DNA from: an uncultured SAR324 cluster bacterium
GTDB lineage: Bacteria > SAR324 > NAC60-12
Assembly: GCA_902590435.1 (NCBI GenBank)
Contig: CACIWU010000002.1
Location: 631-64,630 of the forward strand
Reading direction: 5' to 3'
DNA length: 64,000 bases
The position numbers and the translations under genes were made by a program. The number at the start of each line of letters is the position of its first letter. The stretch's first letter is position 1. The notes beneath the pieces are model-generated. The model had not been told where the DNA came from. It did not search any database and saw only the letters and a list, made by a program, of their open reading frames with translations. Of the stretch, positions 1,250 to 24,700 are shown in pieces.

Positions 1250-1264
1250 TTCTATGCTTATAAA

Positions 1265-1771
1265 CTAAATTTTTCTTGAATCATAAGCCCAGTGAAGAAG
1301 TGCTTGACTTTGTTTAATTCGACATTCTAGATCACCTTGCTTGCAATTTTTTTTTATCTGGGAAATGTGCCTATGCATAGCCTGCCAACGTTTTATCTGG
1401 CGCTCATCATCTATACATCTGCGCCCCATATAGTATCTGCAGTACCATTGAAACCATCCTCTCGGGTCTTCTAGATATATCCAATTTTTCTTTCTCCAAT
1501 ATGCCAAAGGTTGGGATGCGTTAACATTAAAAAAATTTAATTCCGGATTATGACGTTGACTACATAAAATAGCATTATCAAACCAGTCTGAAGGGAACTC
1601 TAGAGTACAGTCAGTCATGTATTTTCCTCCAAATATACCAAGTTCCAACATTTCCTTTGGAGTAAGTTCTGGACAAAAAGTTTTGTGAAAATTCTTCCCT
1701 AAAGGTTCTGTGAGAAAGTAGGAAAAATCTTTCTGCATCAAATCTTCAATTACTACACGTTGCCTTTTCAT
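1265..1771 (-). CDS. conserved hypothetical protein (WFQWYCRYYMGRR motif)
   Basis: 168-aa ORF, co-oriented with the SDR gene and 15 nt upstream of it. Aromatic/Cys-rich core DPRGWFQWYCRYYMGRR...DDERQIKRW looks conserved. I cannot name the family with certainty. Confidence 0.55.
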   Translation of the reverse strand: MKRQRVVIEDLMQKDFSYFLTEPLGKNFHKTFCPELTPKEMLELGIFGGKYMTDCTLEFPSDWFDNAILCSQRHNPELNFFNVNASQPLAYWRKKNWIYLEDPRGWFQWYCRYYMGRRCIDDERQIKRWQAMHRHISQIKKNCKQGDLECRIKQSQALLHWAYDSRKI

Positions 1772-2189
1772 ATGTTTAATATGAAATAATTTAATTAATT
1801 ATTTTGATCACTTTGCTAATCACAAATTTTTTAAGAATTGCATCAACAGGAACCACTTTAGTTTTCAGATAAACAGACTATCTAAAGTAATCGGATAGCT
1901 GCAAATTAAATGCTGATTCAAATTTCCAGAAAAATACTTATCTTGACGAATGGATGACAATAAATTGTCAGGAAACTTTAAGCCTTAGAGGTTTTCACTG
2001 TAATTACATCATTTTTCTGAATGATTTTCCTCAAACTTGAGGTGACTTGGTTTTCAATACTTTGTTTCAGGAACAATATGTAAAGTCTTTTTTCGGTACT
2101 TCCATCCCCATTCCCTGATTTTATTATAATTTTTTCTTATGAAGCTTCTCATTTTTCTAATATTTTTTATTTTTATAAACCAGGTTTTA

Positions 2190-2738
2190 CTATAGAAGTG
2201 ATTCTATAGCCGAAGTTATCTCATCTTGATTTGGATGCACGTTAGAACGAAAACGCCTGACTAGTTTGCCTTCACGGCTTACCAGAAATTTCTCAAAATT
2301 CCAGCGTATTTCTCCCATACTTTTTCCATTTGAGTCTTCTGTCAGGTATTTAAATACTTGCTGTTTTTCAAATCCCTTAACTTTTCCTTTAGCAAAGATT
2401 GGGAAACTTAATTCATATACTTCACAGAAGTCTTTTATCTCTTCATTAGTTGAAAGTTCCTGCCGGAAGTCATTGCTTGGGAAAGCTAAAACAACAAAAT
2501 CACGTTCTTTGTACTTATTGTATATTTTTTCTAAACTTTTATACTGAGGAGTGAATCCGCACCGAGATGCTGTGTTTACGACTAATAAAATTTTCCCTTT
2601 ATAATTACTTAGAGATACTTCTCTCCCGTCGATACTTGTAGCCTTGAGTTCAAAAATTCTGCCTGAAGCGATGCTGAAACTTAGCATCACAAGCAGCATT
2701 ACTGTGATAAAAATACGATAAATATATTTGACAATCAT
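2190..2738 (-). CDS. gpx: glutathione peroxidase (Cys-type), with N-terminal signal/anchor
   Basis: Motifs NTASRCGFTPQY, LAFPSNDFRQE and WNFEKFLVSREGKLVRRF are classic GPx signatures. Hydrophobic N-terminus. Confidence 0.9.
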   Translation of the reverse strand: MIVKYIYRIFITVMLLVMLSFSIASGRIFELKATSIDGREVSLSNYKGKILLVVNTASRCGFTPQYKSLEKIYNKYKERDFVVLAFPSNDFRQELSTNEEIKDFCEVYELSFPIFAKGKVKGFEKQQVFKYLTEDSNGKSMGEIRWNFEKFLVSREGKLVRRFRSNVHPNQDEITSAIESLL

Positions 2739-2915
2739 AATAATTTTTCTATATATACATTATTAAAGGGACATTTTATGAATTTTATAGAATTTATAAA
2801 AAACACCTGTCGGTGAGTGATGAGAAAGGTTTATTGAGTAAAGGTGTAATCCTCACTTCCTTATTTTTCTTACACAAACCAGATGAGAACCTTGATTCAC
2901 TTTTAATTTAAATAT

Positions 2916-2951
2916 GAGTAGTAATTGCAAGGGTTTGGTGGAGAAGAGGGG
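2916..2951. repeat. decayed copy of tRNA-Ala 3' end plus flank (distal att-like repeat)
   Basis: 2936-2951 TGGTGGAGAAGAGGGG matches the tRNA-Ala 3' end (11721-11736) at 15/16. 2916-2935 GAGTAGTAATTGCAAGGGTT matches 7892-7911 at 17/20. Confidence 0.6.
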
Positions 2952-3234
2952 ACAGTCCATCCTTACTCATGTCGCACCCCTTACTTGTGTTCTACCTTAT
3001 TGTAATCACTTGATAAAAAGTCTTTCTGTCCATGAAGGTTTGACTTCGTGTCTCAAAAAAAGTGTAATTAAAGTGGGTTTAAATTGCAAGTAAAATAGTG
3101 ATTTCCTGCTTATTATTAGCAAGTTAGGTCAAATATCCAATTATCCAAAAGATTACAGAATGTAATAAAAAAGAATAAAATCCATTACAACCAAAAATCC
3201 AATTACAATTATAATTGTTTTTCTATTTCTCATT

Positions 3235-3372
3235 CTAAAAACCAACGAAATACCAATAAACAATCAGACCTCCGATAATAATCCCTTTAACGAATGCTAT
3301 ATACGCAGAAAGAAATGGATGTGTTCTTATAAAATTTTTTCTCCATTTCCAAAACGATTTAATTGTTTCCAT
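3235..3372 (-). CDS. small (45 aa) single-TM protein, hypothetical
   Basis: Below the ORF-track cutoff. Near-perfect SD: AAGGAGGT, 8 nt, then ATG. Reads METIKSFWKWRKNFIRTHPFLSAYIAFVKGIIIGGLIVYWYFVGF, a basic N-terminus followed by one hydrophobic helix. Confidence 0.4.
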   Translation of the reverse strand: METIKSFWKWRKNFIRTHPFLSAYIAFVKGIIIGGLIVYWYFVGF

Positions 3373-3448
3373 TTCTTATTACCTCCTTACGTGTTTAAGT
3401 TGTAGAGAAATATTGTCTTAACATTTACAAATAATTTAGCCCTTTCTC

Positions 3449-4069
3449 TTATGAAAACACAACAAGTCTTACAGAGGTTATATACTCTATTGAATCGTTT
3501 GTCTTTGCGGGTAGGAGTTCCATAGAATTGATATTTTGCTCAGCTAGGGTCATCCGTTTGAAAAGAAAGTCTTCTTTATTCATGGAGTGACCCTGTATGT
3601 ATAATTGTGTCGTTAAAACATTTTCCCTTTCATTCCAAAGCTTCAGGTGGATGTGTGGGGTTCTTCCAGGATATTCTACTGGAATGATAGTTCGGAAGTA
3701 AAAATGACCATTCCGATCTGTGATGGACCTGCCAAATCCCTGAAATTGAACATCCCTCATTTTGCTTCCGAATGAGCCAGTATGTAGATATACACCATTC
3801 ATGTCTGTCTGCCATATCTCAGCGGTCATTCCTTTAATAGGTTTAGAATCACGATTTACAAGACTACCCATTATGTTTAAAATCTTTCCGCCTGCCTCGA
3901 TTGTAGATTGTCCATTTTTTACAAGATCGTTGTCAGTGTCTTCTGGAATTCTATCGGGATAAAATGGTCCTTCTCCTTGCCAAGGTGTTCTGATGAGTTC
4001 CCCTAAGGAAACACCAGGTAAAACAATTGCTCCACATATAGCAAAAAAAGATCTTCTTGAGGTCAACAT
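3449..4069 (-). CDS. intradiol ring-cleavage dioxygenase-like protein with twin-arginine (Tat) signal
   Basis: N-terminus MLTSRRSFFAICGAIVLPG is a Tat motif (SRRxFF). Also GEGPFYP and GRTPHIHLKL (compare RPAHIH of intradiol dioxygenases). Confidence 0.75.
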   Translation of the reverse strand: MLTSRRSFFAICGAIVLPGVSLGELIRTPWQGEGPFYPDRIPEDTDNDLVKNGQSTIEAGGKILNIMGSLVNRDSKPIKGMTAEIWQTDMNGVYLHTGSFGSKMRDVQFQGFGRSITDRNGHFYFRTIIPVEYPGRTPHIHLKLWNERENVLTTQLYIQGHSMNKEDFLFKRMTLAEQNINSMELLPAKTNDSIEYITSVRLVVFS

Positions 4070-4084
4070 AGTTCTTGTATATAT

Positions 4085-4142
4085 AATGTGTTACTCCCCA
4101 AAAGAATAGGGATTGAGAGTAGGATAAGTAGGTGTTTCACTT
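4085..4142 (-). repeat. inverted partial copy of the island 5' module (upstream of the dioxygenase gene)
   Basis: Reverse complement AAGTGAAACACCTACTTATCCTACTCTCAATCCCTATTCTTTTGGGGAGTAACAC. Its first 16 nt are identical to 5470-5485, and the remainder resembles the CCCTCATTCTTGT / AGTAACAC pieces at 6972-6993. Confidence 0.7.
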
Positions 4143-4335
4143 GATTTCTTATTGTTGATTAGTAGAACCCAATATAATATGATTCCCGGGACAATTTCTC
4201 ACATTTCTACTTCAGTAGAAAATGTAATTTTGTTATGAAACATAGCATAATTTGTTTTTATATTAAATTTATTAAAATATTACAATAAATTTTTAAAATC
4301 TGAGAGCCTTTTATATATAGCGCTAACGGATTTTA

Positions 4336-4345
4336 CCCCCCCCCC
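4336..4345. repeat. homopolymeric C10 tract in the divergent dioxygenase/lectin intergenic region
   Basis: Sequence ttttaCCCCCCCCCCttcaa counted directly. It lies 131 nt upstream of the lectin ATG. Confidence 0.95.
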
Positions 4346-4475
4346 TTCAATTTTTTTATTCTACGTAAAGCTTAAATAAGCTACCAATGTGGTGGATATT
4401 TTTTTGCATGCACGGTTATTTTAATATTATTCACAAATCCAAAAAATTTTTGTAATTGAAGAATTATTTTTTTTA

Positions 4476-5321
4476 ATGAAAAACATTTTTTTTATATCTT
4501 TCATATCAACGTTTAGTCTCATAGCCTATTCCTGTAGTGAAAAAGATGACTACAAAAGTTTTGAAAAATATGGTGCCAGTAGTACTAGTAATCCATATAT
4601 TCCTGATAATTTTACTGTTAGCGGAGCAAACAATACTGTAACTATAACTTGGAATCATGTTGATGATGCTACAAGTTATACCATTTTCTGGAATACTGAA
4701 GGAGGAGTTGATACTAGCGACAATGCCATCACTTCAATCACGAATGACAATTACACACATAGTAATTTGGAAGATGGTTCAAGATACTATTACAAGGTAG
4801 CCGCGGTAAGTAAATTTTATGGAACAAGTACACTTTCTTCTGAAGCAAGTGCTATTATTTCTTCAAATATACAAGGTTCTCAAACTTATAACTCTCATAC
4901 ATACGCTATTACAAGCTCAGCTATGAACTTTGCCAATGCTAAAATTCAAGCCGCAGCATTAGGAGGATATCTCACAACAATAAACACTAAAGCTGAAAAT
5001 ACATTTCTGACTACAGAGTTTTACGGAACATATGGCGCTGCAATTTGGATTGGAGCTAATGATATCGAAACAGAAGGAACATGGATATGGGATAATGGTA
5101 CTACATCAGGGGACAATGGATTAACGGATACTATTTGTAATGCACCATCTGGTGATTGTCAACCTAGTAATGCAACATGGGCAGATGGTTCTAGAAAATG
5201 GAATAACGGTGAACCAAATAACGCAGGTAATGAAGACTGCGCTAATATTACCAGAAGTGATGGTACCTGGAATGATCTAAGGTGTTCAAGAACATTGTAC
5301 GGTATTATTGAATTTGATTAA
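4476..5321 (+). CDS. lipoprotein with fibronectin type III domain and C-type lectin domain (EPN/WND)
   Basis: Signal plus lipobox-like MKNIFFISFISTFSLIAYSC followed by acidic SEKDD. Fn3-like VTITWNHVDDATSYTIFWN...YYYKVAAV. CTLD: WIGANDIETEGTWIWDNG...WNNGEPNNAGNEDCANITRSDGTWNDLRCSRTLYGIIEF. Confidence 0.8.
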   Translation: MKNIFFISFISTFSLIAYSCSEKDDYKSFEKYGASSTSNPYIPDNFTVSGANNTVTITWNHVDDATSYTIFWNTEGGVDTSDNAITSITNDNYTHSNLEDGSRYYYKVAAVSKFYGTSTLSSEASAIISSNIQGSQTYNSHTYAITSSAMNFANAKIQAAALGGYLTTINTKAENTFLTTEFYGTYGAAIWIGANDIETEGTWIWDNGTTSGDNGLTDTICNAPSGDCQPSNATWADGSRKWNNGEPNNAGNEDCANITRSDGTWNDLRCSRTLYGIIEFD

Positions 5322-5400
5322 TGAGTTATGAAATACTATCCCCGCCACCTCCACTAAAAATAGTAAAATAACAGACACCAAAAATTTCTTCAAGTAAATT

Positions 5401-5520
5401 CCCTCAATTCTTTTAAAATCCCCCAAGTTTTGGTATATATTGGTTTAATTTAAACACTTATGGGAAACCAAGTGAAACACCTACTCATCATCCTCTCAAT
5501 ACTTCTTCTTTCTTCTCCTG
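5401..5520 (+). repeat. island 5' module copy 1 (promoter-like P box plus signal-peptide-like U box)
   Basis: P box 5401-5440 CCCTCAATTCTTTTAAAATCCCCCAAGTTTTGGTATATAT resembles 6981-7019. The U-box core 5474-5508 is 35/35 identical to 6882-6916. Confidence 0.85.
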
Positions 5521-5919
5521 TGATTGGTCAGTATGATGAAAAATCGAGTGCCACAAACTATTTTGTAACTTACTAAATAAAAAATATGAACTTTGAAGAT
5601 ACACTAACTGGAGGGCACCCAAACTCATTAGGAAAAACTATAATAAGTACGATTACGATGACTAGGATTTTTCCATTTGTGCCACTTTTTTGCCATTGAG
5701 TTTTAAAAAAGGCATAAAAATTAATTAATTCCCTTCCCCACATTAATGTAATTCAACCCCATTATATTTTAATTGACAAACCATTAATGCATTTGTAGGA
5801 TCATGGGGTTGTTAATGTGATAACAAATCTGGGGAGTTAATCAGTACTTATATCAAATAGGATTGAGAACTTCGAATTATTGAGTTTTAAACTATTTATT
5901 AAACCTATAAAGAAGGAAA

Positions 5920-6285
5920 ATGATGCCACTTATAAGAATTGATATACCTGAAGGAGTGTCGAATGAGGATAAAGCAAAGATACAAAAAAATGTCAGAGAG
6001 GTTGTATTAAAAACACTTGCTCCTAAACAAGTGAGATATGATTATGTTTCGATAAGAGAGGCATTTGGCATTATTGGTGATGGTTTGCCAGTAGTAGATG
6101 TTGATTTGAGACCAGGACGTGAACCTGAAAGAAAAAAAGGTTTGGTGGATGGTATTTCTTCTGTTCTTAAAGATATATTAAATGTTGATCCTGAAGACGT
6201 ATATTGTATTTTCAGAGAAACTCCTGCTCACAATCATTATACTGGCGGTGAACCTTTGCCAGATTGGGTTCCTGCAGACAAGTAG
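5920..6285 (+). CDS. tautomerase-superfamily protein (4-OT-like, long form)
   Basis: MMPLIRIDIPEG...: a start at the second Met (5923) would expose the catalytic Pro1. SD-like GAAGGA lies upstream. Size and pattern fit the roughly 120-aa tautomerase family. Confidence 0.7.
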   Translation: MMPLIRIDIPEGVSNEDKAKIQKNVREVVLKTLAPKQVRYDYVSIREAFGIIGDGLPVVDVDLRPGREPERKKGLVDGISSVLKDILNVDPEDVYCIFRETPAHNHYTGGEPLPDWVPADK

Positions 6286-6875
6286 ATTGTTCTCAAAAAC
6301 AATAATACCGGTCATTCCGTACTTCTTAGCAACCTCCACAAACTCTTTGGAAAGATAAACCTTGGAATGTAACAGGATACGACAAAGACGGAAACATCCT
6401 TGGAAAGTTTGTGAATGGGAACCCAACAAAACAATGACCAACCCTACAAATTCCTGAAACTTTTTCCCAAAAAATATTCACAGTCTAACATAATTTTTAA
6501 ACCTCCCTTATCCAGGTAAAACAAACAGATTTATGAGAAATTATTAATCCTCATAACCTCCCGAAATAACCTCCAAGAAAAACCCATTAATTAACTTCAT
6601 TTCCAATTCTTATAATATCTCTATTAATGACACTAAAAGGCTTTTGATAGCAATATTATTTTAGATATAATCCTAATCATATTTTACCTTAAATATAGCT
6701 TAAATAGCGATATATAGCTTTTTAAAGCTATTTTAAACAAGAGTTACCTCATTAATGACAATAATATCTAAAAAGAGATGAAAATAGACTAATCAATAGA
6801 CCAAAAATTAATGAGATATTGGTTAAGTATTTTTTTTAATTTAATTCCTATCTTTATCTATTTTTCAAACCAATA

Positions 6876-7053
6876 AACCATGAAACACCTACTCATCATC
6901 CTCTCAATACTTCTTCGTTTCTCCTGTAAGAAACCCCCACACTTAATTCTTCACAGAGTTAGACAGTCCCCAAGTAACACCCCTCATTCTTGTAAAATCC
7001 CCTATTTTTTGGTATATCTAAGGTTTTAGATTAAATAATCTACTAAAAAACCA
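6876..7053 (+). repeat. island 5' module copy 2 (U box then P box) directly upstream of the 7054 gene
   Basis: 6882-6916 is identical to 5474-5508. The P box 6981-7019 contains TTGTAA, 17 nt, then TATATC, about 35 nt before the ATG at 7054. Confidence 0.85.
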
Positions 7054-7698
7054 ATGAGACATATATTCAAAATCTTTTCTACAATTATTATACTAATTTC
7101 GTTTTCTTTTAACATATTTGCAAATGAAGATAATTCCGTTACTAGAAACAAAACTTTCCAAATACAAGCAATTGTCTATTCATCCTTAGGAACTGGTCTT
7201 AGTCTTAGTTACAGATTCAAGAAAAATATCTGGTTAAACTTTGATACACAATCATTATCTGGAACTATGTCAATAGACTCAAATGACGGATCAACAAGGG
7301 AAGATGCTGATTTTGAATTTCAAACCAAATATATAAATGTGCGAAATTATTTAACTAGTATATTTAGTGATTTATTTATTCAATATGGAATTGTATCAAC
7401 AAATTGGGATACAAAATCTATAGTAAAAAGTAATGAAAATAATCAAAAGAAAGCAGTTTATAAAACAAATTATCCAACCAAAGGAGTTAATTTTGGTGTA
7501 GGAATGAATTGGATTTTTTATAATGGTTTATCTTCAGGACTATATTTAGTTAGAATTATAAGTGAAGAACCATCATTTACCTATGAACTTGAAGAGGATT
7601 GGGAATGCTCTAGTTCTTGTCGATCAAATTATGAGAGTACTGTAAAAAAATATACTCCTAACAATTCATTTTATTTAACTTTTGGTTATAATTTTTAA
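7054..7698 (+). CDS. putative small outer-membrane beta-barrel protein
   Basis: Signal peptide MRHIFKIFSTIIILISFSFNIFA. Alternating aromatic/Gly-rich strands. C-terminal ...FYLTFGYNF ends in Phe, as in OMP sorting signals. Confidence 0.45.
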   Translation: MRHIFKIFSTIIILISFSFNIFANEDNSVTRNKTFQIQAIVYSSLGTGLSLSYRFKKNIWLNFDTQSLSGTMSIDSNDGSTREDADFEFQTKYINVRNYLTSIFSDLFIQYGIVSTNWDTKSIVKSNENNQKKAVYKTNYPTKGVNFGVGMNWIFYNGLSSGLYLVRIISEEPSFTYELEEDWECSSSCRSNYESTVKKYTPNNSFYLTFGYNF

Positions 7699-7782
7699 TT
7701 TAAGATCCACATTATCTCCACTGAGAAACCTCTATTTAATTTCTCTCAGTCAGACAATCAACTCTGTATGAAAAGTCATTTG

Positions 7783-7815
7783 ACTGACACCAAACTGACA
7801 CCAAACTGACACCAA
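7783..7815. repeat. perfect 11-bp tandem repeat x3 (ACTGACACCAA)
   Basis: Read directly. It lies 97 nt from the tRNA-Ala fragment at 7912. Confidence 0.95.
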
Positions 7816-7891
7816 AAACAGGAGAATAAGTAAAAATGGGTTAGACTAATACCTATCCCCCGAAGTCTCGTCAGTTTTTGTAAGGGTTTGC

Positions 7892-7934
7892 GAGTAGTGA
7901 TTGCAAGGGGATGGTGGAGACGAGGGGGATCGAA
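7892..7934. repeat. exact 23-nt copy of tRNA-Ala 3' end plus 20-nt shared flank (att-like direct repeat)
   Basis: 7912-7934 TGGTGGAGACGAGGGGGATCGAA is identical to 11721-11743. Similarity ends at the next base (T versus C). Confidence 0.85.
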
Positions 7935-7991
7935 TTTTAGAGAAATATTGAACCCCCAATGACTTGGAGATAAATAGTTTTAGATTGTAAA

Positions 7992-9023
7992 CTATACTTT
8001 ATTAGAGAGACATTTTTTGAGGCTGTTTGCCATATCATGAATTAGGATAAAGTATAGTTTAGGACCATTTTGGATGGAAGCACCAAGTGGATCAAGTACC
8101 CCCGTTTTTGCTTTAGTTCCTTCTAAAACTGTTGACACCAGTTTTGGTTTGAATTGTGGTTCGGAAAACACACAAAGCGCATTCAATTCCTTAATTTTGG
8201 TTTTCAATTCTTTGATACGTTTTACACCGGGAACTACTTCAGGTGATACAGTGATCGAGCCAACAGCTTTCAAACCAAATCGTTCTTCAAAATACTGGTA
8301 AGCATCATGGAAAACCACAAAACCTTTCCCTTTTGCAGATGTAAGTTTTTCTGAAACTTCAGCGACAAGTCGATTCAGCTTCTCAACTACTCTTTTGGTA
8401 TTTGTTTCATATTTTTTTGCATTTCCTGGGTCAACTTTTTTTAATGCTTCCATGATTTCATTAGCCATAACTTTCGCATTTTCCGGGTCAAGCCAGACAT
8501 GGACATCGAACTTACCGTGGCCATGATCATCATGCGATTCCTCAGCATTATTATCATGCTCTTCTTCGGAGTGGTCTTCATGTTCTTTATGACCATCCTT
8601 ATCGTAATCATCGTGATCATCGTGTTCTTTATGACCACCTTCATCGTGATCATGCTCATCGAAACCTCCACCTTCTCGCATTTCTAATTTTTTCAGCCCA
8701 TGTGAGTCCATAAGCTCGACTACCATGGCTTTGGAGGCAAGTGACTCGAGTGGTTTTTCCAGGAAAGTTTCCAATGAGTGTCCCATCCAAAAAACAAGAT
8801 CAGCTTTCTCAATCTGTTCTGCCTGAGAAGGTTTCAATGCATAGGTATGTGGTGATGCGGCACCTTTTACAATCAGAACTGGGGCACCAATACCCTCCAT
8901 GACAGCTGCAACGAGAGAATGTACTGGCTTGACAGAAGCCACTACATTGATTTTAGCTTGAGCAATGAATGTGATGTTTGAAAGCAAAGTTATTGTAAGG
9001 GTGAGTGATTTAAATAATCTCAT
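7992..9023 (-). CDS. znuA: zinc ABC transporter substrate-binding protein ZnuA with His/Asp/Glu-rich loop
   Basis: The likely start is MRLFKSLTLTITLLSNITFIAQA (signal peptide) at 9023; the track ORF extends to 9077. His-rich loop HDHDEGGHKEHDDHDDYDKDGHKEHEDH...HDDHGHG. Divergent from znuCB. Confidence 0.9.
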   Translation of the reverse strand: MRLFKSLTLTITLLSNITFIAQAKINVVASVKPVHSLVAAVMEGIGAPVLIVKGAASPHTYALKPSQAEQIEKADLVFWMGHSLETFLEKPLESLASKAMVVELMDSHGLKKLEMREGGGFDEHDHDEGGHKEHDDHDDYDKDGHKEHEDHSEEEHDNNAEESHDDHGHGKFDVHVWLDPENAKVMANEIMEALKKVDPGNAKKYETNTKRVVEKLNRLVAEVSEKLTSAKGKGFVVFHDAYQYFEERFGLKAVGSITVSPEVVPGVKRIKELKTKIKELNALCVFSEPQFKPKLVSTVLEGTKAKTGVLDPLGASIQNGPKLYFILIHDMANSLKKCLSNKV

Positions 9024-9041
9024 AATATTATCCTGTGAGAA

Positions 9042-9092
9042 TTGACAATTTAATTGTAATGTTATAACATTATACATTATGTTATAACATTA
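9042..9092. promoter_or_regulatory. znuA/znuC divergent control region: two Zur-box palindromes overlapping promoter elements
   Basis: Perfect 16-bp palindrome TAATGTTATAACATTA (9057-9072) and TTATGTTATAACATTA (9077-9092), with centres 20 bp apart. Plus-strand TTGACA (9042-9047), 17 nt, then TAACAT. Minus-strand TATAAT lies at 9074-9069. Confidence 0.7.
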
Positions 9093-9135
9093 CAAAAAAC
9101 AATCAATAAAAAAATTAAATAATCTGAAAGTCTTC

Positions 9136-9984
9136 ATGATTCAAAAAAATTCCTTCCTGATTAGTCTCAAAAACGCTGGTTTTTTCCGAAGCGGCAGATG
9201 GTTGGTGCGAGGAGTTAACTTAACTGTGAACTCAGGAGAAATTCTCACTCTGATTGGCCCTAATGGTTCTGGAAAATCTACAACAGCTAAAATGGCAATT
9301 GGAGTTTCTAAGCCAGATGAGGGCACTGCTAAAAAACGTAAAGGCCTTAAGATAAGTTATTTGCCACAGAGAATTTCTATCGATTGGACGCTTCCAATAA
9401 AAGTAAATCGCTTCATGAACCTCACGGGCCAGGTTAGAAGAAAAGAAGCCGATGAAGCACTATCTCTTACGGGTGCAATACATTTGGCAAAATCGGATGT
9501 CAGAACTTTATCAGGTGGGGAATTTCAAAGGGTATTGATGGCACGGGCAATAGCACGCAAACCTGAACTAATTGTTCTTGACGAACCGGTACAAGGGGTT
9601 GACTTTAATGGTGAGATTGAGATTTATGAGCTTATTAGAAACATTCGTGATGAATTGAAATGCGGTGTTCTTCTGATCTCACATGATCTGCATGTTGTTA
9701 TGGCTGCTACAGACCGTGTCATTTGCCTCAATGGTCATGTCTGTTGCTATGGTACGCCAATGACTGTGGCTAACAGCAAAGAATACAAAGCCCTTTTTGG
9801 GGCAAGAGCCGTATCAGGTCTCGCTTTATATGAACATCGTCATGACCATGAGCATCTTCCTGATGGCAGTATTCAATCTAAAGATGGAACCATTGATAAT
9901 GATTGCTCTCCTGATCACGGGGATCAATCCCAAATTTATAAATATTCGTTTGAATACAATAGAGCTGAAAACCATGATGGATGA
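9136..9984 (+). CDS. znuC: zinc ABC transporter ATP-binding protein ZnuC with His-rich C-terminal tail
   Basis: Walker A GPNGSGKST, signature LSGGEFQR, Walker B LIVLDEP. Tail YEHRHDHEHLPDG. Confidence 0.9.
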   Translation: MIQKNSFLISLKNAGFFRSGRWLVRGVNLTVNSGEILTLIGPNGSGKSTTAKMAIGVSKPDEGTAKKRKGLKISYLPQRISIDWTLPIKVNRFMNLTGQVRRKEADEALSLTGAIHLAKSDVRTLSGGEFQRVLMARAIARKPELIVLDEPVQGVDFNGEIEIYELIRNIRDELKCGVLLISHDLHVVMAATDRVICLNGHVCCYGTPMTVANSKEYKALFGARAVSGLALYEHRHDHEHLPDGSIQSKDGTIDNDCSPDHGDQSQIYKYSFEYNRAENHDG

Positions 9985-10810
9985 TTTTTTTATTCGAGCA
10001 TTGATTGCTGGAACGGGAGTTGCTTTGGTTGCAGGACCGCTAGGTTGCTACGTTGTATGGCGAAGACTTGCTTATTTTGGTGATACGCTCTCTTGTGCAG
10101 CCCTACTAGGTGTTGCATTAGCACTACTCTTCGAAATAAATACAACATTAGCCGTCTTTTCCGTATCCGTTTTCATTTCTATGGCATTATTACTGTTACA
10201 AAGTAGAGTTAACCTTTCCGCAGATGCGTTGCTCGGACTGCTAGCTCATTCCGCTTTGGCAGTTGGTATGGTCGCTTTAAGTTTTATGACATGGGTCAGG
10301 GTAGATTTGATGGGGTTCCTATTTGGAGATATTTTGGCTGTTACCCCATTCGATATTGCTATCATTTGGGGTGGTGGAGCATTTGTGCTGATCGTACTAG
10401 TAATTTCTTGGCATTCTTTGTTTGCAGCTACTGTAAATGTTGAGATTGCTCAAGCAGAAGGCATGAAACCCGATCAAGCTAATATTGTCTTAATGCTATT
10501 GATGGCTGTTGTTATTGCGATTTCCATGAAAATCGTAGGAGTTTTACTGATTACTTCAATGCTTATATTCCCTGCAGCAATTGCTCGCCGTTTCGCAACC
10601 GGGCCGGAACATATGGCATTGCTTGCAGCCATTATAGGCATCTTAGTAGTTTTTGGTGGAATGTTTGGTTCCCTTCATTGGGATACACCTTCAGGGCCAA
10701 GCATCGTAGTTGCGGCATCAGTATTTTTCATAATTACCGCTATACCGGCAACTTCCTTTCAGATGATTAAAAATGCCTCAATTGAAAAACGTGATACAAA
10801 GCAAAAATAA
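9974..10810 (+). CDS. znuB: zinc ABC transporter permease ZnuB
   Basis: The track ORF starts at 9797 inside znuC. The sensible start is MMDDFFIRALIAGTGVALVAGPLGCYVVWRR at 9974, an 11-nt overlap with znuC. Polytopic membrane protein. Confidence 0.9.
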   Translation: MMDDFFIRALIAGTGVALVAGPLGCYVVWRRLAYFGDTLSCAALLGVALALLFEINTTLAVFSVSVFISMALLLLQSRVNLSADALLGLLAHSALAVGMVALSFMTWVRVDLMGFLFGDILAVTPFDIAIIWGGGAFVLIVLVISWHSLFAATVNVEIAQAEGMKPDQANIVLMLLMAVVIAISMKIVGVLLITSMLIFPAAIARRFATGPEHMALLAAIIGILVVFGGMFGSLHWDTPSGPSIVVAASVFFIITAIPATSFQMIKNASIEKRDTKQK

Positions 10811-10814
10811 AATT

Positions 10815-11054
10815 AAAAAATAAGCATTTAAGCAAAACAACCTTTTAAACTTAGCAAAAAAAGTATTTGGCAATGATTTTCTAGCCAGAGGCGAAAGTAA
10901 AATTAAGTGCCTTCCAAATACTTTATGGTCATAATGATCATGGTTTAAGCCGACTTATACATGTTTACTGGTTTTTAAAAAAACTTTTAGAAATTGGGAT
11001 AGTTCATTAATTGAAAATATCAATGGTTTTGTTGCTTGTCAGTAAGAAAAATGT
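10815..11054 (+). pseudogene. decayed tandem duplicate of the 5' half of zur
   Basis: Hand alignment to 11097-11337, for example GCCAGAGGCGAAAGTAAAATTAAGTGCCTTCCAAATACTT versus GTCAGAGGCGAAGGGACCATTAAGTGCCTACCAAATACTT, and ...TTTGTTGCTTGTCAGTAAGAAAAATGT versus ...TTTGTTGCTTGTCGACAAGAAAAATGT. Multiple stops in the homologous frame. Confidence 0.7.
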
Positions 11055-11064
11055 TATAACATAC
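11049..11064. promoter_or_regulatory. Zur box upstream of zur (autoregulation)
   Basis: AAATGTTATAACATAC shares the ATGTTATAACAT core with the znuA/znuC boxes. It ends about 30 nt upstream of the GTG start. Confidence 0.6.
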
Positions 11065-11094
11065 AAAAATTCATTCTAAATAAAAGATAAAGAA

Positions 11095-11508
11095 GTGAAA
11101 AATAAAGCAAAACAAACTTCTGAGCTTAACAAAAAACAGTCTTTGGTAATGAATTTATTGTCAGAGGCGAAGGGACCATTAAGTGCCTACCAAATACTTC
11201 ATGATCTTAATGATAATGGTTTCAGAGGACCTACACAAGTTTACCGGGTTTTAGATAAACTTTTAGAATTAGGAATGGTTCATCGTATAGAAAGTATGAA
11301 TTCGTTTGTTGCTTGTCGACAAGAAAAATGTCATGAAAAAAATAAAGACATCAACTTGTTTACAATTTGTAAAATTTGTGGGAGTGTTCAGGAACTTTTA
11401 AGCAATGGATTAAAGAATATAGTAAAATCTCTTTCGAAAGATAATAATTTTTTGTTGAAAAGTTCCGTGCTTGAATTAAATGGAGTATGTTCTAAGTGCA
11501 AAGAATAA
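11095..11508 (+). CDS. zur: Fur-family zinc uptake regulator Zur
   Basis: Winged-helix N-terminus (LSAYQILHDL...TQVYRVLDKLLELGMVHRIE). CxxC pairs ICKICG and CSKCKE. Adjacent to znuACB. GTG start; an ATG alternative lies 17 codons in. Confidence 0.8.
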   Translation: MKNKAKQTSELNKKQSLVMNLLSEAKGPLSAYQILHDLNDNGFRGPTQVYRVLDKLLELGMVHRIESMNSFVACRQEKCHEKNKDINLFTICKICGSVQELLSNGLKNIVKSLSKDNNFLLKSSVLELNGVCSKCKE

Positions 11509-11631
11509 TCTTCCGAGATTACCCACCTTTTCCCACTTCCCTCTTCTCACCACAAATTTTGCCAGCTTAATCATAAAAGATTTTAACGATTTATATTTAG
11601 CGGCTAAGGATCTTGAAAAATGATGGAACAA

Positions 11632-11657
11632 ACCTGTCCCAGTTGACCTGTCCCAGT
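11632..11657. repeat. 12-bp direct repeat x2 (ACCTGTCCCAGT, 14-bp period)
   Basis: Read directly. It lies 64 nt from the 3' end of tRNA-Ala. Confidence 0.9.
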
Positions 11658-11720
11658 AAGAAAAAGTCTAACCTTAAATTAATTAATATTATCAGTTAGT
11701 TATTTTGATATTATAAAGGG

Positions 11721-11796
11721 TGGTGGAGACGAGGGGGATCGAACCCCTTACCTCAACGCTGCCAGCGTTGCGCTCTACCAGTTGAGCTACGCCCCC
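11721..11796 (-). tRNA. tRNA-Ala (anticodon GGC), CCA encoded
   Basis: Reverse complement GGGGGCGTAGCTCAACTGGTAGAGCGCAACGCTGGCAGCGTTGAGGTAAGGGGTTCGATCCCCCTCGTCTCCACCA folds as a cloverleaf. Anticodon loop CTGGCAG. G3:U70 Ala identity pair. Confidence 0.95.
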
Positions 11797-11898
11797 AATA
11801 TAAGCTAAGTAAGAGTTAAGCCTTGAATCCTTATCTAATCCAATCAGATCCATTTTACTTGCATTGACTGTACAAGTTTCAAATACTCATTTAATTTG

Positions 11899-11971
11899 CG
11901 TCCCCAAGGGGAGTCGAACCCCTGTTGCCGCCGTGAAAGGGCGGAGTCCTAGGCCACTAGACGATGGGGAC
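11899..11971 (-). tRNA. tRNA-Glu (anticodon UUC), CCA not encoded
   Basis: Reverse complement GTCCCCATCGTCTAGTGGCCTAGGACTCCGCCCTTTCACGGCGGCAACAGGGGTTCGACTCCCCTTGGGGACG. Anticodon loop CTTTCAC. Confidence 0.9.
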
Positions 11972-12100: not shown

Positions 12101-13993
12101 TTAATTTTGAAGGTAATTCAAAATCTCTATAGCTAATTGTTTGGGAACTCCTGGAACCTTTAGAATTTCGTCAATAGAAGCCTTCTTCAAATTTTTTAGA
12201 CTTCCAAAGTGCTTTAGTAAAATTTTTCGTCTTTTTGGTCCTATTCCTGGAATCTTATCAATTTGTGAACCAAGTGTATGATGAAGTTTTAGGCTTCTAT
12301 GAAAATCAATTGCAAAACGGTGAGACTCATTTCTAATTTTTTGTAAAAAATAAAGTACATCAGAATTTCGGCGAATTCGAATTTCGTTTTTTTGATTTGG
12401 TTTTACAACATATTCGTAATCAAAAATTTGTCCTAGGTTTCTTCCTTTCTTTCTTTCGGATCGACCTTTTGCAAGTCCTATGAGATCGACTTTTTTTAAA
12501 ACATCTAGTTCTTTTAGTATTTTAGCGGCTATATTTATTTGACCCTTGCCACCATCAATTAAAATTAAATCAGGGGTTTTAAAACCTTCTTCTTTGCTAT
12601 TTTTGTAATGTCGGGCAAGAACTTCTTTCATACTAGAATAATCATCCTGTCCATTTGAATCACTTATTTTATATTTACGATAATCTTTTTTTGAGGGCAT
12701 ATTATTTTCCCAGCAAACCATTGAAGCTACAGTCATTGTTCCGGAAAGATGCGATATATCAAATGCGTCTACTCTTTTTGGGAGGTGTTTCAATTTCATT
12801 TTGTATTTTACATGTTCTAAGATATTTTTGTTTTGATAGTCACGTTCTTTTTTCTCTGAAAAATTGAATTTAGCGTTATTGAAAGCCATGTTTATTAGTT
12901 CTTTTTTCCGACCTTTTTGTGGATTGATAACTCTGACACGCCTGTCAGATTTTTTGTTCAACTCAGTTTCTAGTATTTTCTTGTCCGAATAGTCAAAAGG
13001 CAATAAAATTTCACTAGGCATGATAGAATCTTCCATCATGTAAATTCTATGCAATACTTGCCCTAACAAATTATTATCAGAAGCATGATTGCTATCTTCA
13101 AAAAAGAAAAAATCTGTTCCTAATAGTCTGCCTTCTCTTATGAACAAAACTTGAACGCCAGTATTTTCAGACTCACGGAAAAGATTAAAAACATCCTGAT
13201 CTTTACCTTTAACATCTAATACCATTTGCTTGGCAAAAATTCGACGCACAGCTTGAATTTGATCCCGTAAATGAGCAGATTTTTCAAATTCAAGTTTTTC
13301 AGCATTAAGCCTCATTCTTTTTTCAAGTTCTTCCAAAAGTTCTTTGTCTCTGCCTTTTAAGAAAAGACGTACTTGCCCGACAATTTTCTGATACTCTTGC
13401 ACATTAACATTTCCCCTACATGGAGCAAGGCACCTTTTCATTTGAAAATTTAAACAAGGGCGAAATTTCTTTTTCCCATCAAGAATCATTTTACTTGTAC
13501 GAAGTGGAAAATATGTAGCGACGGCTTTAAGAACTTGTCTAGCATCTTTAACAGACGTGTAAGGCCCAAAATATTCAGATTCATTATCAATTTTTTCCCT
13601 TACGAGTAAAAGCCTAGGAAACATTTCTCCCACAGTTAGTTTGCAATAGGGATATGATTTACCATCCTTGAGAGCCACATTATAACGAGGGTGGTGTCTC
13701 TTGATTAGTTGATCTTCCAATATTAATGCTTCTGCTTCGGTATCAGTTACAATAATAGAAAAATCATAAATAAGTGATACTAAAATCTTGATTCGTGTAT
13801 TATGTTTCGCGGATTTTTGGAAATAAGAACGAATTCGATTTCTTAAGGATTTAGATTTACCTATATATAGAATACTTCTTTTAAAATCTTTAAAGAGGTA
13901 TACCCCAGGCTGATCCGGTAAGCTTGAAAATTTAATTTTTGCAGGATAAATACCACCATTAATTCTCCTTGAATGGTGATTTTTATTAATCAT
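12101..13993 (-). CDS. uvrC: excinuclease ABC subunit C
   Basis: GIY-YIG N-terminus (GVYLFKD...ILYIGKSKSLRNRIRSYF), UVR domain, C-terminal HhH. 630 aa. Confidence 0.95.
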   Translation of the reverse strand: MINKNHHSRRINGGIYPAKIKFSSLPDQPGVYLFKDFKRSILYIGKSKSLRNRIRSYFQKSAKHNTRIKILVSLIYDFSIIVTDTEAEALILEDQLIKRHHPRYNVALKDGKSYPYCKLTVGEMFPRLLLVREKIDNESEYFGPYTSVKDARQVLKAVATYFPLRTSKMILDGKKKFRPCLNFQMKRCLAPCRGNVNVQEYQKIVGQVRLFLKGRDKELLEELEKRMRLNAEKLEFEKSAHLRDQIQAVRRIFAKQMVLDVKGKDQDVFNLFRESENTGVQVLFIREGRLLGTDFFFFEDSNHASDNNLLGQVLHRIYMMEDSIMPSEILLPFDYSDKKILETELNKKSDRRVRVINPQKGRKKELINMAFNNAKFNFSEKKERDYQNKNILEHVKYKMKLKHLPKRVDAFDISHLSGTMTVASMVCWENNMPSKKDYRKYKISDSNGQDDYSSMKEVLARHYKNSKEEGFKTPDLILIDGGKGQINIAAKILKELDVLKKVDLIGLAKGRSERKKGRNLGQIFDYEYVVKPNQKNEIRIRRNSDVLYFLQKIRNESHRFAIDFHRSLKLHHTLGSQIDKIPGIGPKRRKILLKHFGSLKNLKKASIDEILKVPGVPKQLAIEILNYLQN

Positions 13994-24511: not shown

Positions 24512-24700
24512 CAAAAAGTCCGCGATGTCGTGTGTAAAATGCGCTTTTGTTTCCTTGTTCACACAAGGTGGAGTAATGTTATAAAAGGTTCAGGCTTGCT
24601 GCTTAATTTGCAGCCATGCACACTCCTTTCAGGGACTAACTCCTATCTGAAAAAATCAGGAAGCAAAAGTTTCACATCACGATCACCGCAGACAATATTT
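24512..24700 (-). ncRNA. ssrS: 6S RNA
   Basis: Immediately downstream of zapA, as in E. coli. About 185 nt. 5' CTGCGGTGATCGTGATGTG pairs with 3' CACACGACATCGCGG, followed by a T-run. Internal AGTCCCTGA, apical GCATGGCTGC-AAATTAA-GCAGCAAGCCT and 3'-side hairpin CCACCTTG-TGTGAA-CAAGG occur in the same order as the E. coli elements GUCCCCUGA, GCAUGCUCGG..CCGAGAAGCCU and CACCUUGAACCAAGG. Confidence 0.7.

Follow-up and report, generated by a model that had tools for sequence, protein, structure and literature searches.

The window, a 64,000-nucleotide (64-kb) stretch of DNA from an uncultured SAR324 cluster bacterium, contains fragments of the 3′ end of tRNA-Ala(GGC) that lie kilobases from the tRNA gene itself, and the question is whether the segments between them were added by successive site-specific integration. 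The 23-mer TGGTGGAGACGAGGGGGATCGAA occurred at exactly two sites in the window (7912-7934 and 11721-11743) and was absent from 100 shuffles, even when three mismatches were allowed. The 16-mer TGGTGGAGAMGAGGGG occurred at exactly three sites (2936, 7912, and 11721) versus 0.04 expected from shuffles. Thus, the exact second copy and the decayed third copy at 2936-2951 (15 of 16 positions) described in the initial annotation were both borne out. Moreover, the flank GAGTAGTRATTGCAAGGG was found solely at 2916-2933 and 7892-7909 in the window (0.09 expected from shuffles), and repeat search reproduced the reported 20-nt flank common to the two distal copies, giving a composite 36-mer of flank plus snippet with 32 of 36 positions (89%) identical. 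All copies were direct and on the 3′ side of the minus-strand tRNA, facing its 3′ end as originally described, and no further copies were found within the 64 kb. Contiguous identity between copies 1 and 2 stopped at the next base, as had been claimed (T at 7935 versus C at 11744), but a second short T-arm match at 7947-7957, exact in the sibling strains L177 and L178 (GGGGTTCGAT), indicates that tRNA homology is not wholly finished at 7934.

Crossovers of tRNA-targeting tyrosine integrases usually fall in the T-loop and 3′ half of the tRNA, and the tRNA 3′ end serves as attB for prophages and for classical tRNA-linked genomic or pathogenicity islands. Parsing of the sequence divided the 23-mer into the T-loop TTCGATC, the T-stem 3′ strand CCCCT, the acceptor 3′ strand CGTCTCC, an A, and CCA. 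Identity thus starts at base 1 of the 7-nt T-loop and extends to CCA, as expected after integration of an attP matching the T-loop-to-CCA segment. In copy 3, the T-loop was replaced and the stem/acceptor region carried one mismatch. The flank common to copies 2 and 3 most plausibly represents the integrase-proximal arm of an element family and not ancestral chromosome. As a separate observation, the same tRNA-Ala(GGC) 23-mer was present in unrelated high-GC IMG/VR contigs, one of which had, besides a complete tRNA-Ala, a partial second copy at which no tRNA was called.

Table 1. Features of the tRNA-Ala island in the window, from the tRNA anchor outward
Feature	Position	Strand	Evidence or remark
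tRNA-Glu(TTC)	11898..11971	-	ARAGORN and Rfam; part of conserved uvrC-tRNA-Glu-tRNA-Ala anchor
tRNA-Ala(GGC)	11721..11796	-	ARAGORN; Rfam tRNA, 62.4 bits; integration target; 3′ 23 nt (11721-11743) are copy 1
Arm A	11621..11720	-	tRNA-proximal end of islet 2; 87-91% identity to sequence immediately following tRNA-Ala (L010) or the middle snippet (L178)
Arm A 11-nt direct repeats CTGGGACAGGT	11632-11642, 11646-11656		Candidate arm-type integrase sites
zur (Fur-family regulator)	11095..11508	+	Pfam FUR, 6e-7; islet 2 cargo
Degenerate tandem duplicate of zur 5′ region	10803..11077	+	Stops and frameshift; repeat search
znuB (ABC-3 permease)	9974..10810	+	Pfam ABC-3, 1e-65; ATG at 9974
znuC (ABC ATPase)	9136..9984	+	Pfam ABC_tran
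20-nt palindrome between znuA and znuC	9054..9095	.	95% complementary; kept in relatives
znuA (periplasmic Zn-binding protein, His-rich loop)	7992..9077	-	Pfam ZnuA, 1.5e-68
Second short T-arm match GGGGGTTCAAT	7947..7957	-	10/11; islet 2 distal end, 12 nt from copy 2
Copy 2 (middle snippet)	7912..7934	-	Exact 23-nt tRNA-Ala 3′ snippet; islet 2/islet 1 boundary
Flank F	7892..7911	-	20 nt, common to copy 3; related to L177 integrase-proximal arm (ATCACTAC motif)
Three tandem 11-nt units (G/A)ACTGACACCA	7782..7814	+	~80-130 nt from copy 2; candidate arm-type sites
214-aa exported beta-barrel protein	7054..7698	+	45 relatives, 58-98% identity; islet 1 cargo
MORN-protein gene 5′-end remnant	6880..7029	+	Signal peptide MKHLLIILSILL...; repeat search and comparison with relatives
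MORN-protein C-terminus remnant	6330..6437	+	..PWNVTGYDKDGNILGKFVNGNPTKQ, then stop
Tautomerase-family protein	5920..6285	+	Pfam Tautomerase, 6e-19; islet 1 cargo
Second MORN signal-peptide remnant	5472..5576	+	
fn3 and C-type-lectin lipoprotein	4476..5321	+	Pfam Lectin_C, 9e-13; fn3, 1e-6; islet 1 cargo
Noncoding block	4295..4341	.	46-47 nt identical to block in insert of L010 (other SAR324 species)
Third MORN signal-peptide remnant	4100-4139	inverted	
Exported intradiol-dioxygenase-like protein	3449..4069	-	Pfam Dioxygenase_C, 1e-21; islet 1 cargo
45-aa membrane protein gene	3235..3372	-	Gene and RBS also present in L010 and L175, with different neighbors
Copy 3	2916..2951	-	Decayed snippet 2936-2951 (15/16) and flank F′ 2916-2935
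Spacer	2809..2915	.	No counterpart in any relative; between copy 3 and start of GSHPx-contig homology
Glutathione peroxidase (GSHPx)	2190..2738	-	First gene left of repeats

The order rsmE-dsbA-uvrC-tRNA-Glu-tRNA-Ala was kept in 16 SAR324 loci; the upstream side was syntenic, and all sequence beyond tRNA-Ala varied across SAR324 species. None of the window genes at 1-11700 was found downstream of tRNA-Ala in the 16 loci, five MAG contigs terminated at the 3′ end of tRNA-Ala to within 1 nt, and no contig among the close strains spanned tRNA-Ala to zur. Other species had tRNA-Ala snippets of their own (L010, with an insert of ~0.95 kb; L026, 1.7 kb; L019, 74 nt), and in the window and relatives alike the copies were all co-oriented and confined to the tRNA-Ala island. 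The strongest evidence was provided by a closely related strain, L177, which was 93.5% identical to window positions 11277-7894, a region taking in znuCBA, the snippet, and 18 flank nucleotides, beyond which an intact 603-aa DUF6538-type integrase took the place of islet 1. L178 was 93% identical to 11512-7904 and continued with arm A and a metzincin lipoprotein; the homology of both strains with the window therefore ended at 7894-7904, within the snippet/flank. In L175, the outer membrane protein (OMP) gene, at 93% identity, was followed by the 45-aa gene and by two further snippets, both decayed. L010 matched the window along 85 nt of arm A (91%), in a 47-nt block (100%), and at the start of the 45-aa gene (88%). 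The conservation of these ends, despite core genes ~69% identical and an unalignable tRNA spacer, argues for recent horizontal spread of island ends. In L179 to L182, the closest znu contigs (96%), homology broke off at 7981, 47 nt short of the snippet, with no snippet beyond. The sister species L183 (80.7%) carried the znu-zur module elsewhere, between 34-nt inverted repeats together with a different tRNA-like fragment. The arrangement in L183 indicates that processes besides the DUF6538 integrase also move or reshape modules.

No integrase, excisionase, or transfer gene was found in the 64-kb window, in agreement with the description of the islets as integrase-less. In relatives, tyrosine integrases were found next to the tRNA or a snippet. 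Homologues with DUF6538 and Phage_integrase domains (34-42% identical; phrog_1) were encoded in L009, L015, L026, and L177 by genes beginning 110-190 nt past the tRNA or a snippet. The L177 integrase sits exactly at the middle snippet of the window, and in L026 the integrase is followed by a Rep-like gene. In L022, an unrelated Phage_integrase adjoins the tRNA. Adjacency suggests that the DUF6538 integrases are specific for the tRNA-Ala site, and we infer that this family made the junctions of the window.

Islet 2 (7935-11720) is a zinc-uptake module that is common in the population, with ~40 ZnuA clusters at 90-94%, and not a rare strain-specific insert. The true start of znuA is probably the Met at ~9023 (ZnuA relatives are 332-349 aa), and the mechanical open reading frame of znuB starts at 9797 (relatives' proteins are 278-283 aa). 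The palindrome is a probable Zur operator, and the zur 5′ duplication is also present in L183. The 11-nt direct repeats of arm A may be arm-type binding sites; the 11-nt tandem units of islet 1 (2952-7911) were absent in L175 and L177. The proteins of islet 1 had been called orphans, a description that did not survive comparison, as they include a dioxygenase, an fn3/C-type-lectin lipoprotein, a tautomerase, and a beta-barrel protein with relatives, alongside MORN debris. A Pfam search with the beta-barrel protein gave no match, and one of its relatives is named outer-membrane beta-barrel protein. The MORN debris matches intact MORN genes that come after the integrase in L009 and L026.

The distal boundary, placed at 2916 in the initial annotation, proved soft. 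Homology with GSHPx contigs on the left side begins at 2767-2808, 110-150 nt from copy 3, and thus the boundary and the repeat do not coincide. GSHPx neighborhoods varied among relatives and never adjoined tRNA-Ala; in seven contigs whose GSHPx regions were 87-95% identical, GST/ABC1 or DoxX lay beside the gene. An empty site, in which tRNA-Ala is followed by the sequence left of 2916, had been suggested as a check and was not found in the relatives searched. The island may continue beyond the left end of the window.

We consider it likely that the locus is a tRNA-anchored additive flexible island that was built by successive site-specific integrations and whose integrase has since been lost in this genome. 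Successive integration into the tRNA-Ala 3′ end, as initially proposed, is upheld by the variable downstream region and by the snippets and integrases of relatives at the same site. In the proposed mechanism, ~600-aa tyrosine integrases (DUF6538 N terminus plus Phage_integrase catalytic domain) would recombine at the tRNA-Ala T-loop, each incoming element would restore the tRNA by bringing its own T-loop-to-CCA segment, and the older 3′ segment would be displaced outward as a "snippet." The window would accordingly be read as tRNA, module 2 (arm A, zur, znuCB, and znuA), snippet plus arm F, module 1 (beta-barrel OMP, MORN debris, tautomerase, lectin lipoprotein, dioxygenase, and 45-aa protein), and decayed snippet plus arm F′, followed by more flexible genes, and we infer the order of integration events from this layout. 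The integrase of this genome would have been lost through deletion or replacement, such that both modules would now be integrase-less remnants, or cargo cassettes keeping att-like ends.

Whether the modules are dead bears on a possible, if doubtful, alternative, namely that they are integrase-less cassettes mobilized in trans, or in cis by accretion in CIME-like hitchhiking, with arm A plus core as the portable recombination end and a DUF6538 integrase in the same cell or in neighboring elements as the mobilizing enzyme. Att-like cores are kept at both ends of both modules. Arm A, including the two 11-nt repeats, is conserved at 87-91% between species with ~69% core-gene identity, and it stands ahead of four different cargos: znu (window), a small gene (L010), the metzincin (L178), and a decayed version (L175). 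Moreover, the intact L177 integrase adjoins the znu module, that module has a different context in L183, and CIME/accretion is an established concept (PMC5704250) that was also put forward for the ssrA islands of Dehalococcoides (PMC3146451). Yet the window has no integrase within 64 kb, copy 3 with its replaced T-loop and one stem/acceptor mismatch is probably no longer a substrate, and the distal (P-side) ends of arm-A inserts are mutually unrelated, which leaves no single defined attP. In addition, no circular junction or excised form was seen, and arm A and the core-plus-arm pattern were absent in IMG/VR.

The snippets could instead be real old scars within a mosaic made by homologous recombination, deletion, and rearrangement among strains, the islets never having been discrete elements and the znu operon and islet 1 genes being ordinary flexible genes between surviving scars. 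Breaks indeed often lie off the snippets (L179 to L182 at 7981, L175 at 7762, and GSHPx contigs at 2767-2808 and 1912), the 45-aa, OMP, and GSHPx genes each occur in several different neighborhoods, the L183 znu module lies between inverted repeats, and Hackl et al. describe most island material as not consisting of recognizable elements (bioRxiv 10.1101/2020.12.28.424599). We nonetheless think such an origin improbable, as znu between an intact tRNA and a displaced snippet requires entry on the tRNA side, for which integration is the simplest explanation; L177 and L178 homology does end inside the snippet/flank, and island ends are conserved across species. That the repeats are decayed whole-tRNA duplicates, a dispersed family, or chance matches unrelated to site-specific recombination is effectively refuted. 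An extra short match (CCCCTTAC) ~24-25 nt inside copy 3 and one L175 copy is readable as tRNA derived, but 3′ segments from the T-loop alone were present, no 5′ halves were detected, and neither ARAGORN nor Rfam (E≤1) gave a tRNA match in 2700-8100. Shuffles expect 0-0.09 matches, all copies are co-oriented and restricted to the tRNA-Ala island, and integrases adjoin snippets in relatives.

As in classical tRNA-linked islands and prophages, the distal boundary carries a direct repeat of the tRNA 3′ end, but those elements bear their own integrase and phage or ICE genes, whereas the window segments (3.8 and 5 kb) contain nothing but cargo. The model published for Prochlorococcus islands matches the one proposed here: tRNA-Ala(GGC) is among the targets, zinc genes are among the cargo, partial tRNAs divide tandem elements, and degenerate remnants occur. 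Tycheposon-related elements have been reported in Deltaproteobacteria (bioRxiv 10.1101/2020.12.28.424599). Like the window, tycheposon islands adjoin specific tRNAs, including tRNA-Ala(GGC), newer elements push older ones outward, tandem elements are split solely by a partial tRNA, remnants and partial tRNAs accumulate, and the cargo serves nutrient uptake and zinc homeostasis. [quoted passage not shown] The host here is SAR324 and not a cyanobacterium, however, and the window lacks an integrase or replication gene; no hallmark tycheposon genes were identified in it, and the relatives' integrases are ~600 aa with a DUF6538 N terminus. Dehalococcoides ssrA islands, in which the insertion point maps to the T-loop (McMurdie et al. 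2011; PMC3146451), likewise form multiple tandem islands downstream of one small-RNA gene, with an ~20-bp direct repeat of the gene 3′ end and extra conserved flanking nucleotides. Some of their units have no integration module, and cis-mobilization was proposed for these (PMC3146451); the window modules are also integrase-less. They differ in having a tmRNA target, a CcrB-like serine recombinase, and a six-gene integration module, in contrast to tRNA-Ala and the tyrosine recombinase of relatives. Streptococcus ICE/IME systems show tandem accretion and CIMEs at tRNA or other 3′ gene ends, and CIMEs have lost integration/transfer genes and retained attL and attR (PMC5704250). CIMEs are defined as decay products of conjugating ICEs/IMEs, whereas no conjugation or mobilization genes were seen in the window or the relatives' elements; the att sites here are putative. 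We read the SAR324 locus as a tRNA-anchored additive island of integrase-less modules, like tycheposon islands, ssrA islands, and CIMEs. We conclude that the locus is a clear example of an already known route by which marine bacteria build variable gene islands.

The 3′ end of tRNA-Ala(GGC) recurs on the 3′ side of the gene. When the 64-kb window was searched allowing 3 mismatches, the 23-mer TGGTGGAGACGAGGGGGATCGAA was found exactly (23/23) at the tRNA and at a middle site, with no further copy even at 3 mismatches (shuffle expectation, 0), and its 16-mer core was found at a third site with 1 mismatch (15/16; 0.04 expected). The flank GAGTAGTRATTGCAAGGG occurred in the window at 2916 and 7892 only (0.09 expected), and the composite 36-mer was 32/36 identical. 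All copies were co-oriented with tRNA-Ala. The initial annotation had reported 23-nt repeats of the tRNA-Ala 3′ end, a decayed third copy, and a shared flank, and these were borne out as written by exact coordinates, shuffles, and the composite identity.

Coordinates of features in the window
Feature	Position	Strand	Basis or detail
tRNA-Ala(GGC)	11721-11796	minus	ARAGORN + Rfam
tRNA-Glu(TTC)	11898-11971	minus	ARAGORN + Rfam
23-mer, tRNA copy	11721-11743		23/23
23-mer, middle copy	7912-7934		23/23
16-mer core, decayed copy	2936-2951		15/16
Second T-arm match	7947-7957		10/11
Three 11-nt repeats	7782-7814		
OMP gene (islet 1)	7054-7698		
MORN signal-peptide 5′ ends	5472-5576, 6880-7029		
MORN signal-peptide 5′ end, inverted	4100-4139		
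MORN C-terminal remnant	6330-6437		
Non-coding block shared with L010	4295-4341		
45-aa protein gene with RBS	3235-3372	minus	
zur 5′ region, tandem copies	10803-11077, 11078-11352		
20-nt palindrome	9054-9095		
Palindrome half-site	11051-11062		
uvrC	12101-13993		
6S RNA	24513-24697	minus	Rfam RF00013, 70.9 bits

At tRNA attachment (att) sites, the repeat begins at a loop, either the T-loop or the anticodon loop, and the stem flanks form a symmetric core. Parsing of the 76-nt tRNA-Ala sequence resolved the 23-mer into the T-loop (TTCGATC), the 3′ strand of the T-stem (CCCCT), the 3′ strand of the acceptor stem (CGTCTCC), the discriminator A, and CCA, such that repeat identity ran from the first T-loop base to CCA and started at the loop, as in an att core. 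This footprint is as expected if an integrase swaps strands in the T-loop, the stem arms act as the symmetric core, and the element supplies the loop-to-CCA sequence; the loop-start rule is also drawn from PMC3146451. A second T-arm match lay 12 nt past the middle copy and was exact in two sibling strains. Snippets in relatives had 19 to 29 nt in common with their own tRNA, lengths that fit elements differing in the extent of attP/attB identity. Derivation from a tRNA pseudogene and coincidental matching were both ruled out for practical purposes. We note that the window tRNA-Ala has G5 opposite U68 (a G·U pair), that closer SAR324 relatives (uvrC 62 to 74% identical) have A5-U68, and that a decayed distal snippet (at 3454) of the OMP-bearing contig L175 has C68. 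The single-base difference is a weak hint that the present tRNA 3′ half may have come with an incoming element.

The surroundings of tRNA-Ala were compared through UvrC, which found SAR324 genomes at ≤74% amino acid identity. The order uvrC, tRNA-Glu, tRNA-Ala(GGC) was present in 16 SAR324 loci, and rsmE and dsbA-like genes were also common to the closer loci among them. Downstream of tRNA-Ala, no window gene of 1-11700 was found in any of the 16, and the relatives combined a syntenic tRNA 5′ side with variable content downstream, as a genomic island does. Moreover, contigs ended ≤1 nt from the tRNA-Ala 3′ end in five SAR324 metagenome-assembled genomes (L001, L003, L007, L008, and L014), and two more contigs (L013 and L020) stopped at tRNA-Glu. 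The tRNA-Ala locus is a systematic assembly breakpoint, and the breaks are assembly behavior at a population-variable or repeated region. We conclude that a tRNA-anchored island explains the frequent SAR324 contig breaks at tRNA-Ala.

Exact-sequence look-ups of the window GSHPx, UvrC, and ZnuC gave no match, so strains close to the window were compared via homologues of window proteins. ZnuA, encoded in the znuACB-zur module (islet 2) between the tRNA and the middle repeat, had approximately 40 clusters at 90 to 94% identity in the protein database. The ZnuA-bearing contig L177 was 93.5% identical to window 11277-7894, a stretch that takes in znuB, znuC, znuA and the 47 nt that follow it, the snippet (1 mismatch), and 18 nt of flank, beyond which it diverged and an intact 603-aa DUF6538 integrase began ∼160 nt after the snippet. 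Thus, the integrase occupies the exact place of islet 1, the window segment between the middle and decayed repeats. A second contig, L178 (93%), matched the window as far as 7904 and continued into a copy of arm A, the tRNA-proximal end of islet 2, that was 87% identical to window 11743-11629 and kept both CTGGGACAGGT repeats, with a metzincin lipoprotein encoded beyond it. Contigs L179 to L182 (96%) parted from the window earlier, at 7981, and had no snippet. On the islet 1 side, the OMP gene had 45 relatives, and in L175 (93% over 6972-7762) it was followed by a 45-aa gene and two further decayed snippets with a spacing of 176 nt, and arm-A-like sequence came after one of them. We conclude from L177, L178, and L175 that interchangeable modules truly meet at the middle repeat.

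No close-strain contig reached from tRNA-Ala to zur. A ZnuA scan of metagenome contigs gave only relatives of ≤62% identity. Most were high-GC proteobacteria that arrange znuA / znuCB-zur as the window does, and the tRNA core was absent from them; the scan was uninformative on the junctions. A concatenated OMP-plus-Zur query returned 45 OMP relatives and no Zur match, though zur is present in L178, L179, and L183, and the missing matches were treated as a limit of word-based search rather than as absence.

The initial annotation had described both segments as lacking an integrase. Consistent with that description, no homologue of five integrase queries was detected in the window (tblastn and phmmer; all ORFs of ≥70 aa), and Pfam, NCBIfam, and PHROGs assigned the islet ORFs cargo functions only, with ten small ORFs giving no match. 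No recombinase gene therefore adjoins an att end in the window; one does in relatives L009, L015, L022, L026, and L177. In L026, a 1.7-kb insert without an integrase, encoding a repeat protein and an SRA-HNH protein, separates the tRNA from a snippet; a 620-aa integrase comes next, then a Rep_1-like gene, a resolvase, and a MORN protein. A frameshifted integrase homologue begins 120 nt past the tRNA in L009 and precedes many MORN-repeat exported proteins, the N terminus of an integrase homologue is reached before the contig end in L015, and an unrelated Phage_integrase abuts the tRNA in L022. The L009, L026, and L177 integrases are 34 to 42% identical to one another, carry DUF6538 and Phage_integrase domains, and match phrog_1 ("integrase"). 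Co-oriented snippets of the relatives' own tRNA-Ala lay 945 nt (L010), 74 nt (L019), and ∼1,700 nt (L026) downstream of the tRNA. A reading of the sequence that follows the snippets in L010 and L026 as ancestral chromosome, which would make L002 an "empty site," was rejected because the same sequence lies ahead of the integrase genes of L026 and L009.

In IMG/VR, neither the L026 integrase nor the arm-A repeat nor a core-plus-arm pattern had a match, and the 23-mer matched solely unrelated contigs of higher GC content (0.38 to 0.56). The tRNA 3′ end is thus also found in unrelated viral contigs, which is uninformative on SAR324. One of these (IMGVR_UViG_3300045988_059457) has a complete tRNA-Ala(GGC) plus a repeat of the tRNA 3′ portion (∼40 nt shared, tRNA uncalled), an arrangement resembling that of a provirus integrated at this tRNA in another phylum. 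Separately, a single-cell genome (GCA_902533665.1; L176, 3757-4017) places an islet 1 OMP homologue beside tRNA-Leu(CAA)/tRNA-Pro(TGG), with MORN genes and signal-peptide repeats past the tRNA-Pro 3′ end, and this locus may be a second tRNA-anchored SAR324 island.

The dispersed "repeat" of islet 1 proved to derive from genes for MORN-repeat exported proteins: its parts are a conserved signal-peptide exon (MKHLLIILSILLLSSP) and a fragment of the C-terminal end. Intact paralogues of these genes are numerous after the integrase in L009 and are also present in L026 and L176. As the same cargo accompanies the integrase in L009 and L026, the debris fits islet 1 being the remnant of an integrase-bearing element. 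PHROGs found no capsid, terminase, primase, or AlpA-type genes of prophage or PICI-like elements among the islet proteins; their sole phage-type match was a weak fn3 hit to a tail protein, and their Pfam domains were metabolic and transport related. Conjugation or mobilization genes were absent from the window and from the relatives' elements, and the islets matched no Rfam family. An integron-like cassette array was dropped, as there was no IntI and there were no attC-like sites.

Within islet 2, the zur 5′ region is tandemly duplicated (∼276 to 279 nt) between znuB and zur, and the upstream copy is degenerate, with stops and a frameshift. The sister-species contig L183 has the same duplication (1481-1735 versus 1759-2014, 90 to 97% identical), its upstream copy being a 62-aa ORF. 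The duplication is thus an old one whose copies have been kept similar, possibly by gene conversion or because the region supplies a working small Zur-like product or operator. Between the divergent znuA and znuC lies a near-perfect 20-nt palindrome (TTGTAATGTTATAACATTAT / ATTATGTTATAACATTACAA), whose half-site ATGTTATAACAT is found again upstream of zur; the palindrome is a probable Zur operator conserved in relatives.

Repeated integrase-mediated insertion at the tRNA-Ala T-loop would produce an additive island. We think it probable that this process built the island and that two integrase-less modules between three att-derived snippets are what the window would retain. The initial reading of the repeats as integration scars was supported, with corrections, by the relatives' snippets and integrases and by the module junction; the distal boundary is soft. 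Relatives of the GSHPx region (87 to 95% nucleotide identity) aligned to the window from 2767-2808 leftwards only, and 2809-2915 was found in the window alone among the relatives compared. Seven GSHPx-bearing contigs had GST/ABC1 or DoxX upstream and no tRNA or snippet; no empty site joining the tRNA to the distal flank was found among them, and no close-strain contig spanned the tRNA. Junctions do not all fall at repeats. A partial alternative, which we regard as improbable, is a mosaic that would have arisen largely through homologous recombination and deletion between old scars.

Window 1-2738, which matches the gene order of a single relative, L171 (91%), encodes GSHPx, a 168-aa protein without a Pfam match, and an SDR/NmrA + DUF2867 gene running off the left end. 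In closer GSHPx relatives, parts of this gene set are missing or rearranged (GSHPx-SOUL in L168 to L170, GSHPx-DUF3750 in L172 to L174), indicating that the left flank is flexible too, and the three genes may themselves be flexible. L183, 80.7% identical over window 7997-11513, holds znu-zur between 34-nt inverted repeats (97%; 1038-1071 / 4843-4876). Beside it, 1183-1210 resembles the T-arm, acceptor, and CCA of another tRNA (GCACGTTCGAATCGTGCCGGGTGCGCCA), for which ARAGORN and Rfam made no call. Mechanisms besides insertion at tRNA-Ala thus also relocate the znu-zur module, and the arrangement may reflect a different mobilization route or an inversion.

Some island sequence is shared across species. 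Identity between the window and L010 was ∼69% across clpA-rsmE-uvrC, and the tRNA-Glu/tRNA-Ala spacers were unalignable. Arm A, directly after the tRNA in both, was 91% identical over 85 nt, a 46- to 47-nt non-coding block (L010 9348-9394) was 100% identical, and the 45-aa gene was 88% identical over its RBS and start. Such conservation argues either that this sequence spread horizontally not long ago or that its function is under strong constraint; the 47-nt block could be a promoter, small RNA, or recombination site. The 45-aa gene, for a predicted membrane protein, is 85 to 98% conserved with its RBS in three different neighborhoods within tRNA-Ala island material (the window, L010 10787-10838, and L175 2976-3125). 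Arm-type integrase sites usually lie 80 to 130 nt from the core. The paired 11-nt arm-A repeats and three further 11-nt repeats lie at that distance from a core, from which we infer candidate arm-type sites. We tentatively propose, as an unlikely reading, that arm A (∼100 nt, paired CTGGGACAGGT, after the tRNA-Ala core) is the portable end of integrase-less SAR324 cargo cassettes that parasitize neighbors' DUF6538 integrases and move between SAR324 species. If so, zinc uptake here and metzincin or small genes elsewhere would be cargo, and the cassettes would be minimal "att-only" hitchhikers, a conjugation-independent, tRNA-anchored analogue of integron cassettes and of cis-mobilizable elements (CIMEs).

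To our knowledge, the assembly of the SAR324 flexible genome has been little described. Tyrosine-integrase elements were already reported in SAR324. SAR324 is among the most abundant dark-ocean bacterial lineages and has a very high structural-variant density (PMC12379486). The window matches the CIME and accretion concept (PMC5704250): like a CIME, which lacks integration and transfer genes and keeps attL and attR, the islets have neither gene type, a likeness at the sequence level only, with both cores intact around islet 2 and the distal core of islet 1 decayed. CIMEs arise by decay of an ICE or IME and are excised along with a functional element next to them; that the window modules are still mobilizable in trans is conceivable but somewhat unlikely. 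Tandem ssrA islands of Dehalococcoides offer a further match, with 20-bp repeats, T-loop insertion, and putative cis-mobilizable units (PMC3146451). tRNA-Ala(GGC) is one of seven targets of tycheposons, island elements of Prochlorococcus, and related elements were noted in Deltaproteobacteria (bioRxiv 10.1101/2020.12.28.424599). The window shares with tycheposons integration at an island-associated tRNA that leaves partial tRNAs, the tRNA-Ala(GGC) target, zinc cargo, tandem elements split by partial tRNAs, and degenerate remnants. The tycheposon replication-module layout is not in the window, which holds cargo only, but is in L026, from snippet through integrase, Rep_1-like gene, and resolvase to MORN cargo. 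The tycheposon-specific clade comprises tyrosine recombinases, and the relatives' integrases match generic Phage_integrase, DUF6538, and phrog_1 models only.

The finding is confirmatory rather than surprising. The core sequence at the locus is now defined, and there are candidates for the arm sites and for the integrase (that of L177). We conclude that the tRNA-anchored, integrase-driven island building of Prochlorococcus also operates in SAR324, at the same tRNA (Ala-GGC), and that a zinc (trace-metal) uptake operon is a plug-in module at the tRNA-Ala island.
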